Positions 21,001 through 36,000 of a stretch of 64,000 bases of DNA are shown one piece after another (position 1 is the stretch's first letter; each line of letters begins with the position of its first letter). A program made the position numbers. This DNA is from an uncultured Spirochaetota bacterium. Its GTDB lineage: Bacteria; Spirochaetota; Brevinematia; Brevinematales; JAOACQ01. Location of the stretch: assembly GCA_963783575.1 (NCBI GenBank), contig CAWAOD010000006.1:95758-159757 (forward strand), in the 5' to 3' direction.

Positions 21001-24000
21001 ATAAAACCTAGCCGGATCTATATCTATAGCAATCTGGCAGGTTGTGTATGCGATATCTTTATTGCCCAGTTCCCATTCAAGAATTGCTTTGAATACTAAA
21101 AAATCCTGCCTGCCGATGTATAAATCTTCCGGGTTTATTTTATCGATATAATATTCGGAGCCGTTTAAATCTTTTTTATAATAATATTTAATCATTGCTA
21201 AATAATAAAACAGTTCTGAATTTTCAACATTTTCCAGAATTGCCAGATTTAAATATTCATCGGATTGCTGATAATTTTTCATTTTGAAATAACATTCACC
21301 TATTCTTTGATGCAGAAAGCCTGCCTCTTCTTCAAATTGATTTGTCATCTGCTCATATAATGAAATAGCTTTTTTTAAACTTTTTTCCCTGGAAAGCTGA
21401 AAACCATCGAATTCATTCGTTAATGCGTTTAAAAAATCATCATTGGATATTGTATATTCTTCATTTGTTAATTTACATTGATTATTCCTGAAAATATGAT
21501 AATTATACTCGAGTGAAGTGCAGTCGATATTAATTTCAGAAGAAATTTCTTTGCTTATATCGGTAATCGCCGTTCTCAGTTCAATGTGATTGGCTGCGGT
21601 TTCATTATAATTTGAGATATTTGTAAACTGGCTGGTTATTCCAGATGATTTATTTGTATTCTGATCCGGTTCCTCTGCTTTAACATTAACAGGCGGTTGC
21701 AGCGGTTTTTCTTTTTTTATGGGCGTGCTGTTACATGAAGCAATTAAAAATAGTAATATTAATATTATAAATATTTTCATGCAATGTCCTGAAAAATTTT
21801 CAAGATATGTTTTTAAATTATGATTAATTAGAATTATAATTTGTGTATAATAAAAACACAAAAAAGTCAGTTCATTCCGGGGAGTTTTCAACAAGATCGA
21901 AATGCCATAATAAACAAACAATTTCCAAAGTTTTCGTGTTATGGTATTTTATACTTTGACCAATATTCATTCAATTACTCAAGGCTTTGCAGGGACAGAA
22001 ATGAAATTCAAATTCTTCAGATAGTTTAGTAAATTTAATTCGGTACGCTTCTTCAAATTCAATGCTTTCTTTTTTCCAATTGCTCTTTGAAAAAAATACC
22101 GGGCTGTCAATAACTATTTTTATTGTACCGGATTTCAGGCTTAATAATGAATTTTTCTTCGATAAAATATTTTCACTCCCCAATATATATAAAGGAAGAA
22201 CAGGAGAACCGGTTCGAGCTGCAGTGATAAAGGTTCCCGGAGCAAAAGGAAGTAAATTTTTCCCGCTTCCCCTTGTTCCTTCAGCATAAATTAATACACA
22301 ATCTTTTCTTTTTAGAAAAGAAGAGATTTTATAAAAGTTTTCACTTGAAATTGATTTATCGATAACTGGAATATATTCATAAAGTTTCATACCATAACCA
22401 AAAAATAATATTTTAAAATATCCTTCTTTCGCAAGAAAATGAATTTGTAGTAGAGGGAAATTAGCTATTATTGAAAGCTGATCAAACCATGAACGATGAT
22501 TTGCTACAATTATATAACTTTTATCTAAAGGGATATTATATGGATTCTCTAATATAACATTAACATTAAACAATTTCAATGCCTTACTGTTATATCGTAT
22601 TAAATCTTCGTAATATTGAGACCACTTTTTTTTAAGAATTTTACTTTTTATAATCGGTTTAGAAAACATATAATAAAATGTATAAATATAATAGATTAAC
22701 CATAAACTCATTATATGTATTTTCTTAAATAAACTGTTTTGTGAAGTTTTATTCATCTATGTACCTCTCAACTTTCTCTAAATCAATTGAAAATTCTTCT
22801 TTTGCAATCTGTAGCAGTATTTTAAGATCATATTTCCGGGGATTATTGAAAGTTCGTTGGGAATATACAGTTACATTCCGAATTATTTTCTTATAATCAT
22901 TATATTTTATATAATGACTCAGATATGGCGGAATATTCAACCTTTGGAGAATATTCTGGAATCGATCCGGCATTGATTCTTTATCCAATACTTCAAAGAT
23001 TGAACAAATATATTTAATAGCTGAGTTTAAAGGTTCTATACCCCTGGAATCCAGGCATTCATCCTTATGACATTGCTGATTAAATTTCCAAACTATAGGT
23101 AAATTTAAAAATACGGCTAAACCATGGGGGATAGAATGATTTGCGGTTAGTTGATATGAAAGAGCATGGGCTAAAGTAGTTTTAGAAATATTAATAGCTT
23201 TGCCTGCTAAATAGGCGGCATTTTGCATTTTTTCAATTAATATTATTGAATTCATTGATCGATTTTCAAAAAAAGGTAATAAATAATAAATTTCTTGAAT
23301 TGCCTTCTGGGCATTACTAATTGATTCTTTTGAAGAATGTATTGCCCATAAGGATTCAATTGCCTGAGATAAAGCATCCAACATTGTCATTACTTGAATA
23401 TCAAATTTGATGTCAAATAGCCAGTTTGCAATAAAAAAAACCACCTCTGGAAGTAAGAAATCAGATTCAATATTATACTTTTTTTTATTTTGATATATAA
23501 CACTAAAATTAGTAGCTTCCGAACCAGTTCCTGCGGTAGTAGGTATTGCAAAAAGAACCGGGTTATTATTATAAAGATAGTCTTTTTCTTGAGAACTATG
23601 AATAATTTCAGAAACCTTGGTATGTGTTGCATAAATATATCTTAAACATTTACTTAAATCTAAAACACTGCCGCCACCAATTGCAATAATTAAATCTGGA
23701 ATAAAATTTTTCCCGATCTCTTTATATTTAAATTCTAAATCTGTGACACTAAACAACTGAGTTGAAAATAATATATGTTTTATTTGATACTGAAATGATA
23801 AATGTTTAATCAACTTAAAAATATCTTGATTATTCACTGCACTTTTAAAAGTTATAATTAATATTTTATTTATTTTTGATTCGGCCAGTTTAATCTGGTC
23901 AAGAATAGGCTTGATATTTTGACCTTTAATAACAACTTGTTCCACTGCCGTCACTCCCATACATATAGCATTTGATTTCCAGCTTTGAATCCAAAATATA

Positions 24001-33000: not shown

Positions 33001-36000
33001 TTATTTCGCTTAATAACTTGAGCGATGAAGAAGAAATTGTTGCACAGAATAATCCAGATCCACTACCATCTGTTTACGTAAGTGCCCTGCGCCACGCAGG
33101 CTACCGCGCACATGTTCTTCCGCCGGCTTCAGCCGATACTTACGCCCTTGGTATGAGATACATGAAGGGTACTGAATGCTGCCCGGCAATTGCCAGCGCC
33201 GGTGCAATCCTCGACGAGGCGCTTAAAGCCGATAATCAGCCCTTCAACGTTTTTTTTGCCCGCACCTGTGGTCCCTGCCGTCTCGGCCAATATATCTACA
33301 AGTTCAATACTATACTAAAAGAACACCGCCAGGGTGTGAGCCGTTTTGTTACATTTAAACTCAACATCGATCAACAGGATAGCTTTGGAGTAGATCTCAA
33401 GCTCTCGGTATTCCGCGGGCTCGCCGCTCTCGATGTGCTGGGCAAACTAGTGCAACGCACACGGCCCTATGAGCGTATAGCAGGCAACACCGACCGGGTG
33501 TATGAGGTATATCGCTCTGAGATCCTCACAGCTGTCGAGATTGGTGACCCCGTGGACGTCATTATTGCCCGTGCCGCAGCCGAGTTTACCACGATCCCTG
33601 TGAATCGCCGGAAACGGCCTATTGTCGGCATTGTTGGCGAGTTTTTTGTTCGGGCCGACAGCTTCATTAACCAAGACTTGGTACGCTGCATTGAGGCGAA
33701 CGGCGGTGAGGCATGGCTCGTCGACACGACAGAATGGCAAATTTGGGGTACCTCACGCTCGTTACCCGAGTATGGCGAATATGGTGAAGGAGTAACGGAT
33801 ACTGATGGTGCAATTCCTCCCGCCAAGGTGCTTGCAGAGCTCGAGGCAGAGCAGGATAGGCTCATAACTCTTTGTGGTGATCTCTTATGTGACCGTCACG
33901 AACCGAACATGCGCGATGTTTATTCGGCGGCCGAGAAGTACGTAGATATAACATGTTCCTGATGAAATCTTACCGGTTGTTGGCCGCGGCATCCTCTTCG
34001 CTTTGCGTGACCATGTATCGTTAGTTATCAATACAAAACCCTTTTCATGCTTGCCTGGCAATATGGCGGGTGCAATCCTTAACCGCTTATGTAGTGAGCT
34101 AGATTTCGCGTTTCTCGATATCGCCTATGAAGGCAGCGGTGATCCCAACGCCCCGGTGCGTACCCTGCTTGCTAATCTCCGCACTATGGATCCGGAATAA
34201 ATAATATTACCCGAACTTATTGACTTTTCGTGCCGGCACTTACAATTTTAATAGTCATATATTATCAATGGATAAACCGCCTTATCATCAAAACCAAACA
34301 AGGTAAAACTCAAAATCCCAACACAATTTATTTTGCCCCTGCCGCGATGAGAACATTCACAATGTCAGCATGAGCATTATTTGCTGCATACATCAATGCC
34401 GTCCTGCCATCTTTATCTGCTTTATTAACATCGGACTTTGCTTTGATCAATATATTGATTATTTCCGAATAGCCTTTGTCGGCCGCATACATTAAAGCCG
34501 TCATGTTGTCTTTATCTGCTTTATTGACGTCAGACTTTGCTGAGATTAATTCTTCAACTGCTCCCGATTGTTCACTTATTGCAGCCAGTATTAAGGCGGT
34601 TAAGCCATTATTATCAGTCATATCGATGCTTTCTCCTGCTTTTATCAAAGCTTCAACTGTATCCGGCTGGCCTTTGCCGGCCGCGTACATCAAAGCCGTC
34701 ATACCATCTTTATCAGACTTGTTAACTTCGGTCTTAGCCTTAATCAAGGCTTCAATGGCAGCGGTTTGTCCTTTATCGGCTGCGAACATTAAGGCCGTCA
34801 TACCGTTTTTATCAGACTTGTTAACTTCGGCCTTAGCCTTAATCAAGGCTTCAACTGTACCGGTTTGTCCTTTACCGGCTGCGAACATTAAGGCCGTCAT
34901 GCCGTTTTTATCAGACTTGTTAACTTCGGCCTTAGACTTGATCAAAGTTTCAACTGTACCCGTTTGCCCTTTATTAGCAGCTAAAACTAAAGCCGTCAGG
35001 CTATTATTATTTACTGTGTCGACACTGGCTCCGGCGATGATTAAAACATTAACCGCATCTGAATAACCGTTGCCGGCCGCGTACATTAAAGCCGTTATAC
35101 CGTCCTTATCCGCCTTGCTGACATCGGCTCCGGCTGCGATTAGCACATTAACCGCATCTGAATAACCGTTGCCGGCCGCGTACATTAAAGCCGTCATACC
35201 GTCCTTATCCGCTTTGCTGACATCGGCTCCGGCCGTGATCAATGAATTAACCGTATCTAAATAGCCTTTATCTGCCGCATACATCAAAGCCGTCATACCA
35301 TCTTTATCTGCATCATTGAAATCAGCCTTTGCCTTAATCAATGCTTCAACCGAGCCCGTTTGAACATTGTCGGCCGCCAATATTAATGCCGTCATTCCAT
35401 TGTTATTTACAGTATTGACACTTGCCCCGGCTTTTATCAATGCTTCAACCGCACTAGGCTGGCCATTGTCGGCCGCGTACATCAAAGCCGTCATACCATA
35501 TTTATCTGCCAAATTTACTTCAGCCTTCGCTTTTATCAATGCTTCGACCGTATTAGTTTGGCCATTGTCGGCCGCATACATCAAAGCTGTCATACCGTCT
35601 TTATTCGCCTTGTTGACATCAGACTTTGCCGCTATCAATGCTTCGACCATACCGGATTGTACATTATCGGCCGCATACATCAAAGCCGTATAACCTAAAA
35701 AGTCCGTTTTGTTTATATCAGGCTTTGCCGCAATAATATCTTTCACTATGTCGATTCGGCCATTTTTAACCGCCAGCATCAGAACCGTCATACCGTCTTT
35801 ATTCGCCTTGTTGGCATCAGACTTTGCCTTGATCAATGTTTCAACCGCAGCGTTTTTTTCACTTGTAACCGCTAACATCAATGCTGTCCATCCATTATAA
35901 TTTTCCTTTTTCACATCGGCTCCGGCCGAAATTAATACTTTAATTACTTCTGAATTACCATCATTAGCAGCGTACATCAAAGCTGTCCAGCCATATTCAT

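Follow-up and report, generated by a model that had tools for sequence, protein, structure and literature searches.

A CarS-like cytidylyltransferase gene in a bacterial serine/ethanolamine-lipid operon: a candidate rewired variant of a widespread modular cluster

An uncultured Spirochaetota bacterium carries, within a 64,000-nucleotide stretch of DNA (the window), a six-gene operon that includes a CarS-like cytidylyltransferase. The six genes can be read as a horizontally gained, self-contained second ethanolamine-lipid route beside CdsA, giving a PE-like fatty-acyl lipid with a non-standard backbone (probability about 0.45). CDP activation followed by attachment of a serine/ethanolamine head is highly probable; a non-standard backbone rather than plain PE is an even call.

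The survey's finding had described an operon of CarS-family, PSD, PSS, GNAT, iron-dependent alcohol dehydrogenase (Fe-ADH) and acyltransferase genes with a second PSS-PSD pair, and all are present and intact where it placed them (Table 1). The minus strand carries PSD1-PSS1-CarS-like-GNAT-Fe-ADH-PlsC, the genes overlapping or spaced by at most 116 nt, and a divergent PSS2-PSD2 pair lies on the plus strand. Each of the eight lipid ORFs has its full length and intact catalytic motifs, including the GGST self-cleavage motif in the PSD1 translation; the genes, folds, intact motifs, co-occurrence and fusions discussed below are direct observations. The GC content of the six minus-strand genes lies within the lowest 2-6% of the genome's 3019 long ORFs, which argues for the proposed route. 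Copies of the repeat between the two operons occur on at least six further contigs of the genome (blastn).

Table 1. Features of the CarS-like locus, in window coordinates.
Feature	Position	Strand	Evidence
PlsC-type acyltransferase, operon's last gene	21971..22756	-	PF01553 E 4e-18; HxxxxD and EGTR motifs in translation
Group III Fe-dependent alcohol dehydrogenase (Fe-ADH), phosphonoacetaldehyde-reductase-clade offshoot	22749..23960	-	best model TIGR03405
Tandem-GNAT acyltransferase, cluster family	24011..25132	-	cluster-GNAT profile 267 bits; fold match
CarS-like cytidylyltransferase, bacterial ELPNS subfamily	25249..25839	-	PF01864 over cut-off; CarS fold
PSS1, CDP-alcohol phosphatidyltransferase	25949..26617	-	PF01066 E 3e-17
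PSD1, phosphatidylserine decarboxylase (clostridial-type), operon's first gene	26580..27530	-	PF02666 E 2e-41; NF001941 296 bits
Dispersed intergenic repeat between the two divergent operons	27574..27730		27 blastn matches in genome, itself included
PSS2, divergent phosphatidylserine-synthase-type gene	28297..28920	+	PF01066; cluster-PSS relatedness
PSD2, second phosphatidylserine decarboxylase	28927..29841	+	PF02666 E 2e-49
PlsAR-like gene (plasmalogen-synthase/2-hydroxyacyl-CoA-dehydratase-activator)	29973..34200	+	BcrAD_BadFG x2 and DUF2229

The CarS-like protein falls within Pfam family PF01864 (46.7 bits, cut-off 22). The reported match to the archaeal CarS model is real (NF003114, the CDP-archaeol synthase equivalog, E 1.2e-16), but reaches only 61 of the 148 bits of the cut-off. 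The predicted structure (pLDDT 92) matches the fold of 5GUF, the CarS of Aeropyrum pernix (ApCarS), with Z 13.9 and rmsd 2.6 over 151 residues; the next match scores Z 7.0. Residues D38, K54, E115, S119, K122, D145, D148 and H179 are invariant in all 76 aligned sequences, a point in favor of the proposed route, and the equivalents of ApCarS D41, K57, S104, K107, D122 and D125 are invariant in the same 76. Which of the CTP- and Mg-binding polar residues of ApCarS are catalytic is presumed here. Asn52, which corresponds to ApCarS D55, counts against the proposed route, as the position is Asp in ApCarS and in 54 of the 76 relatives. Judged by its sequence, the protein belongs to an uncharacterised bacterial branch and is not an archaeal CarS. 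The branch is large (1470 representatives at 50% identity with a profile E up to 1e-10, archaeal members possibly included), and a stand-alone CarS-like protein from one genome of the same phylum reaches 112 bits on NF003114. The gene is unique in its class, as the survey had it (0 of 42 class relatives), and occurs in 17 of 400 same-phylum genomes, two of these matches being weak. That neither it nor PSD occurs in any of the 42 relatives favors the proposed route. Natural fusions join CarS-like domains to UbiA, CDP-alcohol transferase, PlsC and diacylglycerol kinase; among 17 long proteins scanned, six carry PlsC, three DgkA and one UbiA. These fusions suggest that the step of the family directly follows that of an enzyme whose product is a phosphorylated and often acylated lipid. 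Fusions to PlsC and DgkA suit ordinary phosphatidic acid just as well, and to that extent count against a special substrate.

The description of the gene as archaeal-type holds for the fold, but not for the model score or the genomic setting. A true archaeal route, in which the CarS-like enzyme makes CDP-archaeol and the operon archaetidylethanolamine, is very unlikely. Such a route could draw on the CarS fold, on PSS genes that score highest on archaetidylserine-synthase models, though far below cut-off, and on an EgsA/AraM-like (G1P-dehydrogenase-like) gene outside the locus, on contig C10 (217 of 413 bits). It is opposed by the 90%-complete genome, which has no PF01884 (PcrB/GGGPS) match and whose three UbiA proteins (best matches MenA-like, heme O synthase and a third unassigned) come nowhere near the DGGGPS cut-off (best 41 of 296 bits), and by an operon that holds acyltransferases instead of prenyltransferases. 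A full PcrB/GGGPS match occurs in only 5 of 50 carriers of a CarS-like gene and CdsA in 49, making archaeal lipids unlikely in these bacteria as well. The product of the locus is almost certainly not an archaeal isoprenoid ether.

The conserved CarS cluster claimed by the survey is borne out. It spans many phyla, is modular and is built around a CarS-family cytidylyltransferase; its partners in 80 related GTDB loci are an RPH-like PEP-utiliser (71), UbiA (63), PSS-type (57), PSD (53), GNAT (42), HMGR-like (21) and acyl-CoA-ligase-like (19) genes. This conservation supports a dedicated serine/ethanolamine-lipid route, and no description of the cluster was found in the literature searched, as had been the case before. 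Two details need correction: the GNAT, put at 5 of 80 loci, occurs in 42 and ranks as a core member, and what was called a "PEP-dependent kinase" combines PPDK_N with a His-swivel domain in the layout of rifampin phosphotransferase and PigC. Proteins of this layout use ATP. The window locus has cluster-type CarS-like, PSS, PSD and GNAT genes. As the survey had cautioned, the genome lacks a close RPH-like enzyme and cluster-type UbiA: a UbiA profile search of the genome gave no match, and the RPH-like genes on contigs C3 and C13 are distant, that on C3 having 26-27% identity and its own long branch. No polyprenol-kinase-like gene was found in the genome. The C3 gene could supply a kinase step that the proposed route leaves out. 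Fe-ADH and PlsC homologues are found in none of 160 related loci, which makes the window locus a rewired variant and also counts against the proposed route; the six-gene order was found in this genome only. In the parent cluster the partners of the GNAT are UbiA, an RPH-like enzyme and a ligase; all three are missing here, a further point against.

PSS1 has 41% identity to four transferase-CarS fusion proteins, and the remaining 10 of its best 14 matches score at most 80.9 bits; among these 14 it is nearest to the transferase half of the fusions, which favors the proposed route. PSS2 is related to the PSS of HMGR-type clusters (41-46% identity to cluster PSSs, clade support 0.96), and PSD2 is 48% identical to PSD1 and 50% to one cluster PSD. 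The genes might simply form an island for plain PE, with the CarS-like protein a CdsA isozyme that takes ordinary phosphatidic acid as its substrate, with PlsC, CarS-like, PSS and PSD supplying the PS and PE that the class lacks, and GNAT and Fe-ADH as passengers or side steps. This main rival is unlikely, yet it accounts for the absence of PSD from all 42 class relatives, for the PlsC and DgkA fusions and for the single PSD match in 30 of 50 carriers. It fits poorly with a CdsA already present in this genome and in 49 of the 50 carriers, with the retention of two separate PSS-PSD pairs, and with an intact GNAT and Fe-ADH in one operon, apparently paired in another phylum. CdsA alongside the CarS-like gene, together with at least two PSD matches in 19 of 50 carriers, suits a dedicated branch.

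The GNAT has no match in Pfam or NCBIfam. It scores 267 bits against a profile built from cluster GNATs and has a tandem-GNAT fold (Z 21.1, rmsd 4.1, 300 residues); the earlier term "ceramide-synthase-like" is warranted as far as that fold. Its nearest relative (51%) and that of the Fe-ADH (50%) come from one Bacillota MAG, with accessions three apart and contigs of 17,150 bp each, which makes it probable that the two genes are paired in a second phylum as well. The window PlsC matches CarS-fused PlsC domains at E 3e-5 to 0.055 and other PlsCs of the genome at E 3e-12 and 7e-9; it is no nearer to the fused domains, which counts against the proposed route. A lipid survey records PE-ceramides in none of its streptococci (PMC11052126); its strains may or may not carry the cluster, and their result likewise counts against.

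The best model for the Fe-ADH is the phosphonate-associated TIGR03405, and several of its matches are named phosphonoacetaldehyde reductase and have motifs in common with it; the Gln-type metal motif occurs in 111 of 120 matches among those listed. Reductases of this kind produce HEP (PMC8942020), and contig C11 carries a PepM that passes its cut-off, together with a Ppd-like gene and a fusion of nucleotidyltransferase and aminotransferase. The Fe-ADH might then convert phosphonoacetaldehyde from the PepM/Ppd cluster to 2-hydroxyethylphosphonate, which would enter the backbone or, through PSS1, the head group. We consider such a phosphonolipid branch quite improbable: the Fe-ADH scores 163 bits against a cut-off of 424 and has 31-43% identity to the clade, PepM lies on a different contig and has an aminoethylphosphonate route of its own, and PSS1 overlaps the PSD gene, which indicates serine as the substrate.

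The survey also counted a plasmalogen-synthase-like gene in the locus. The PlsAR-like gene does adjoin PSD2 and has the expected domains and N-terminal motifs, but its frame is broken, in reality or through an assembly error, near 33950, ahead of the last PFxC motif, with the C-terminal piece to 34200 in a different frame; its GC is 50% (98th percentile) against about 28%, and it occurs in none of the 160 related loci. Two whole paralogues lie elsewhere in the genome. The gene is probably a neighbour outside the cluster that arrived separately. The broken frame could be taken with the absence of UbiA (63 of 80 related loci) and the RPH-like gene (71 of 80), and with the derivation of locus genes from different cluster types, to mean that the locus is a mosaic remnant after loss of the UbiA/kinase core, its head module being without a home-made substrate or re-heading scavenged lipids. 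This is improbable, as none of the eight lipid ORFs is truncated or damaged in its catalytic motifs and further split genes in the assembly suggest sequencing indels.

For the ethanolamine-lipid route preferred here, we infer every substrate and product from gene family and arrangement. The tandem GNAT would add a first fatty acyl chain, as amide or ester, to a small phosphorylated carbonyl compound, the Fe-ADH would reduce the carbonyl to a hydroxyl, and PlsC would acylate the new hydroxyl. The resulting phosphatidic-acid-like lipid would have a backbone other than diacyl-sn-glycerol-3-phosphate, possibly an N-acyl amino-diol phosphate or a glycerol-1-phosphate form. Without cluster-type UbiA and a polyprenol-kinase-like gene, the phosphate would have to be present on the backbone from the start or be supplied from another source. 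The CarS-like enzyme would activate the lipid with CTP, a step proposed to be needed because CdsA would handle this lipid poorly; PSS1 would exchange CMP for serine, and PSD1 would decarboxylate the product. PSS2-PSD2, a second cluster-derived pair, may serve ordinary CDP-diacylglycerol. The locus retains the head module (CarS-like, PSS, PSD) of the widespread cluster, with the core module (UbiA and RPH-like, with GNAT/acyl-CoA ligase and/or HMGR-like reductase and kinase) replaced by GNAT, Fe-ADH and PlsC.

A broader reading is possible, though doubtful: bacteria of many phyla, among them oral streptococci, rumen clostridia, sulfate reducers, Paenibacillus and marine gammaproteobacteria, may run an unrecognised modular lipid pathway with a logic like that of archaea. 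A core of UbiA, His-swivel enzyme and GNAT or HMGR-like protein would build a lipid alcohol of a non-standard kind, ether- or amide-linked, to which interchangeable heads would be added (kinase, CarS-like, PSS and PSD, or a BtaA-like DUF3419 transferase). In the window there would be a third type of core, free of prenyl steps (GNAT, Fe-ADH, PlsC), whose product, a PE analogue with fatty acyl chains and an amino-diol or glycerol-1-phosphate backbone, would belong to a lipid class not yet described. In the lipid divide CarS counts as a marker of archaea, but a large branch of the family is bacterial and occupies lipid clusters, also in the culturable Streptococcus sanguinis and Paenibacillus; "CDP-archaeol synthase" labels are therefore no proof of archaea or archaeal lipids. 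The substrate of this branch, once found, would reveal either a new class of lipid or a second synthase for CDP-diacylglycerol, and orphan UbiA, RPH-like and HMGR-like enzymes would gain functions. Small and independent of a prenyl partner, the six-gene version should be an easy expression unit.

The window protein resembles the archaeal CarS of A. pernix and Archaeoglobus fulgidus in fold, size and five-helix layout, and in the alignment its polar residues match ApCarS N28, D41, K57, T58, S104, K107, D122 and D125. It differs in overall sequence (25% identity), in its ELPNS signature with Glu in place of ApCarS D100, and in a longer loop between helices 2 and 3. It also has no GGGPS/DGGGPS partners, and natural fusions of its family are to PlsC, DgkA, UbiA and CDP-alcohol transferase. 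The archaeal enzyme acts selectively on DGGGP and fails to complement cdsA (PMC9385802, PMC4244643). Rifampin phosphotransferase, PigC-RedH and Rv2047c-type His-swivel enzymes have the PPDK_N and PEP-utiliser order in common with the partners in related loci. The cluster RPH-like enzymes form three separate clades, linked to CarS, to UbiA-GNAT and to HMGR-UbiA, and none of those scanned passes the RPH, PigC or RedH cut-off. Lipid-alcohol phosphorylation by Rv2047c has been put forward as a proposal (PMC2443190). With PhpC and PsrA, the phosphonoacetaldehyde reductases, the window Fe-ADH shares a clade and the Gln-type metal motif; unlike them, it is far below cut-off, has no adjoining pepM/ppd and lies inside an acyltransferase operon. 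The bacterial ceramide pathway proceeds through Spt, bCerS and CerR, and bCerS is a GNAT. A tandem-GNAT-fold acyltransferase beside a carbonyl reductase in the window suggests the same acylate-then-reduce logic. Spt, ACP and CerR-type genes are absent from the window locus, though no search aimed at CerR was made, and the genome's one oxoamine synthase, on a different contig, is below every Spt cut-off (382 of 640 bits). The CdsA-PssA-Psd route to phosphatidylethanolamine has the head-group logic in common with the locus (CDP-lipid, serine transfer, pyruvoyl decarboxylation), with PlsC upstream; the window differs in its CarS-family activating enzyme, with CdsA separate, in the additional GNAT and Fe-ADH, and in its two PSS-PSD pairs.

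The six minus-strand lipid genes (table below) overlap or lie at most 116 nt apart, and include those for a CarS-like protein of 196 aa and a GNAT of 373 aa. The gene names of the locus are consistent with family scans, except that of the GNAT, which matches no family model and has a predicted tandem-GNAT fold. The six genes have a GC content of 25-30%; among 3019 long ORFs, the five that belong to the ORF set lie within the lowest 2-6% for GC. The GC3 of the CarS-like gene is at the 5th percentile. None of 42 class relatives has the CarS-like gene or a PSD gene. We read this low-GC block as a horizontal gain. 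Plasmid records gave no CarS-like match. Scans for promoters and for terminators gave no more than chance (56 vs 48.9 +/- 6.6 and 14 vs 9.5 +/- 3.4, respectively).

Features of the locus and its surroundings (window positions)
Feature	Position	Strand	Basis or detail
Six co-oriented lipid genes: PSD1, PSS1, CarS-like, GNAT, Fe-ADH, PlsC-type acyltransferase	21971-27530	minus	family scans; GNAT by fold
Dispersed intergenic repeat with hairpin-prone segments, presumably REP- or MITE-like	27574-27730		27 blastn matches across the genome; folding z-score only -1.9
Second PSS-PSD pair (PSS2, PSD2), opposite direction, then PlsAR-like gene	from 28297	plus	family scans
C-terminal tail of PlsAR-like gene, in another frame	33950-34200		frame break near 33950; last ~80 codons, including PFxC motif, out of frame
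Protein with 33-residue repeats, which we take to be ankyrin-type	34328-36160		slightly outside locus
Fatty-acid desaturase	38503-39519		PF00487; slightly outside locus

The PlsAR-like gene is a matter apart from this block. Its GC content is 50% (98th percentile of the 3019 long ORFs), and such genes are present in 20 of the 42 class relatives and in none of 160 related loci (the best 80 of 578 confirmed GTDB loci and 80 metagenome loci). Two whole paralogues are found elsewhere in the genome. Two further genes of the assembly are split, one on contig C13 for an RPH-like protein (a PEP-utiliser with the layout of rifampin phosphotransferase and PigC) and a GNAT gene on C5, a hint of sequencing indels.

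The CarS-like protein exceeds the PF01864 cut-off, and scores 61 bits with the archaeal equivalog model vs a cut-off of 148. Its predicted model (pLDDT 92) matches A. pernix CarS (5GUF) with Z 13.9 and rmsd 2.6 over 151 residues; the next row of the fold search has Z 7.0, and CdsA (4Q2E) has Z 6.2. The equivalents of 5GUF D41, K57, S104, K107, D122 and D125 are invariant in all 76 aligned CarS-like sequences, the position of D100 is Glu in all 76, and that of D55 is Asn in the window copy. We take these positions to be CTP/Mg ligands. Given the family match, the fold and the invariant residues, the protein very probably acts as CarS and CdsA do, forming a CDP-lipid from CTP and a lipid phosphate. 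A second, stand-alone CarS-like subfamily occurs in non-cluster settings of same-phylum genomes (L095-L105); its one scored member, with 112 of 148 bits, is closer to the archaeal model than the window copy. At two other loci (L042, L078) a CarS-like gene lies amid genes for PKS/AfsA domains, an acyl-CoA ligase, an ICMT-type methyltransferase, an epimerase, an ABC transporter and Lgt.

The protein should not be classed as a CDP-archaeol synthase. That a true archaeal lipid is made here is highly improbable, the CarS fold and family match notwithstanding. This genome (90% complete) has no PcrB/GGGPS match and encodes its own CdsA; its three UbiA proteins do not resemble DGGGPS. Genomes were searched for 50 of the 80 related GTDB loci: CdsA is present in 49 and a full PcrB/GGGPS match in five (four Paenibacillaceae-type, one Chitinophagaceae); six more have weak partial matches. 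Archaeal CarS is described as DGGGP-selective and no substitute for CdsA in two reviews (PMC9385802, PMC4244643), and bacteria with GGGPS and DGGGPS that lack CarS are described in a third source (PMC7852524). A homologue of glycerol-1-phosphate dehydrogenase (EgsA/AraM-like, 217 of 413 bits) lies unlinked to the locus in a housekeeping region (L221:5052-6233, on C10 of this genome).

The wider cluster was delimited by a GTDB scan, which matched at least 598 stretches; 578 were confirmed and the best 80 kept. Partners were counted with profiles built from the 80 loci and a six-frame search, with many loci cut at contig edges. Among these best 80 of 578 (45 near-full loci in brackets), the RPH-like PEP-utiliser is present in 71 (41), UbiA in 63 (40), a PSS-type gene in 57 (36), PSD in 53 (32), GNAT in 42 (29), an HMGR-like gene in 21 (11), an acyl-CoA-ligase-like gene in 19 (14) and a PigE-like gene in 3 (2); the 80 over-represent kin, so these are not counts of independent events. 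The 80 metagenome loci have the PEP-utiliser in 58, PSS in 42, UbiA and PSD in 39 each, GNAT in 29 and HMGR in 7. The survey's partner counts are borne out, with the exception of that of the GNAT, seen earlier in 5 of 80 loci and here a core member. Two main layouts are found. That of Bacillota is CarS-Pa-PSS-PSD-UbiA-Pb-GNAT-(ligase); Desulfobacterota and other groups have HMGR/kinase-Pc-UbiA-PSS-PSD-CarS. The His-swivel enzymes of these layouts form three clades (Pa, Pb and Pc), and clade follows gene neighbourhood. Mutual exclusion of HMGR and GNAT (together in 0 of 80) was ruled out by loci with both (L110/L201, L128, L134). GNAT and UbiA matches in the ESM Atlas were to unnamed clusters only.

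The HMGR-like partner combines a class I HMG-CoA-reductase-like domain and an APH/EcKL kinase in one fusion protein (L009:2330-5041 and relatives). It has Glu and a non-Lys residue at the positions of the 6HR7 Ser and Lys, which we take to be the HMG carboxylate binders. A role in mevalonate synthesis is unlikely because of these changed residues and because an HMG-CoA-synthase match, weak in all cases, occurs in 6 of the 21 genomes with this partner (G273 counted by synteny only). The unlinked HMGR of this genome has the same Glu.

Among the 17 longest-looking of the best 150 CarS-like representatives, six are fused to PlsC, three to DgkA and one to UbiA, and seven have extensions lacking a Pfam match. 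L003 encodes a UbiA-CarS fusion and L017 an MMPL-CarS fusion. CDP-alcohol transferase-CarS fusions occur in four same-phylum loci (L110/L201, L115, L217 and L218; genomes G291, G273, G285 and G233, respectively), within RPH-like-GNAT-ligase clusters, with UbiA in three and ABC-transporter and MMPL-type genes close by; the stretches examined contain no PSD. PSS1 of the window is nearest to CarS-fused transferases (41%), and PSS2 shares a clade (support 0.96) with PSS proteins from HMGR-type clusters. A common theme of these sequences is that the CarS-like family would act immediately after an enzyme making a lipid phosphate and immediately before a head-group transferase.

The window operon departs from both layouts. 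This genome, at 90% completeness, has no cluster-type UbiA and no polyprenol-kinase-like gene, and its RPH-like genes are distant in sequence and unlinked to the locus. Fe-ADH and PlsC genes occupy the place of the cluster-type UbiA and kinase genes. That the operon is a remnant is improbable. Two acyltransferases, a reductase, a cytidylyltransferase, PSS and PSD are the exact set for turning a small phosphorylated carbonyl compound into a two-chain ethanolamine phospholipid, and we therefore favour a self-contained six-step route, at a probability of roughly 45%. The GNAT would acylate the carbonyl compound, Fe-ADH would reduce and PlsC acylate it, the CarS-like enzyme would activate it as a CDP-lipid, and PSS1 and PSD1 would complete the phospholipid. 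A dedicated activating enzyme next to CdsA makes most sense with a non-standard backbone (an amide-linked amino-diol or G1P). However, the window PlsC has no special kinship to the CarS-fused PlsC domains, and PE-ceramides were found in none of the streptococci in the accessible part of one lipid survey (PMC11052126). Plain PE synthesis is an unlikely but serious rival, since the PlsC and DgkA fusions are equally compatible with ordinary phosphatidic acid.

That the six-gene arrangement is known from one locus counts against the self-contained route. Homologues of Fe-ADH and PlsC were found in none of the 160 related loci (best 80 of 578 confirmed GTDB loci, 80 metagenome loci), a metagenome scan with the Fe-ADH pair for a second copy gave no match, and no close Fe-ADH turned up in 250 genomes from the class to which G434 belongs. 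The sole close relatives of the Fe-ADH (HEX3048975, 50%) and the GNAT (HEX3048972, 51%) come from a Bacillota MAG, where they appear to share one 17,150-bp contig. With 163 of 424 bits and a Gln-type motif, Fe-ADH branches off from the phosphonoacetaldehyde-reductase clade; that the operon is a phosphonolipid branch is nonetheless quite improbable. The oxoamine synthase of this genome is below all Spt cut-offs and unlinked to the locus. Also unlinked is a phosphonate cluster (L200, C11:514500-525300) with PepM-nucleotidyltransferase, Ppd-like, nucleotidyltransferase-aminotransferase, sulfatase-fold and glycerophosphotransferase-like genes.

The head-group logic, from CDP-lipid through serine to ethanolamine, is textbook; the CarS-like activating enzyme, the core module and the rewired window version are uncharacterised so far. 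SSA_1012 presumably belongs with the CarS-like cluster. It is listed in a proteome (PMC5817204). Full-text searches, largely of open-access papers and with most matches judged by listing entry and opening of the abstract, found no paper on this cluster or on a bacterial CarS-like enzyme. In their accessible parts, PMC8942020, PMC2443190 and PMC11334938 likewise lack a description of the cluster, PMC6431249 does not mention CarS, PMC11868695 has it in the reference list only and PMC12570477 as a pathway label only, and bioRxiv 10.64898/2026.09.25.754250 does not mention Rv2047c.

Three same-phylum genomes have an MMPL-UbiA-Pb(RPH-like)-GNAT-acyl-CoA ligase block without CarS, PSS or PSD in the stretches examined (L214 in G137, L215/L219 in G072, L216/L220 in G094). 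Polyprenol-kinase-like and DUF3419 genes precede it in G072 and G094, where the contig extends that far. We take these genes to be kinase-like and BtaA-like (DUF3419) by their motifs, with homology to a CarS-fused domain at 32% and 35%. The arrangement suggests a core lipid module with interchangeable head modules, and the block may build that lipid core with a head of the betaine type. At four loci (L006, L029, L064, L109) a gene for a PigE-like aminotransferase-reductase lies close to those for a Pa-type enzyme and the CarS-like protein. By analogy, these loci may make an amine-containing lipid core, the proximity of the PigE-like gene to the Pa-type enzyme being reminiscent of the PigE/PigC pairing.
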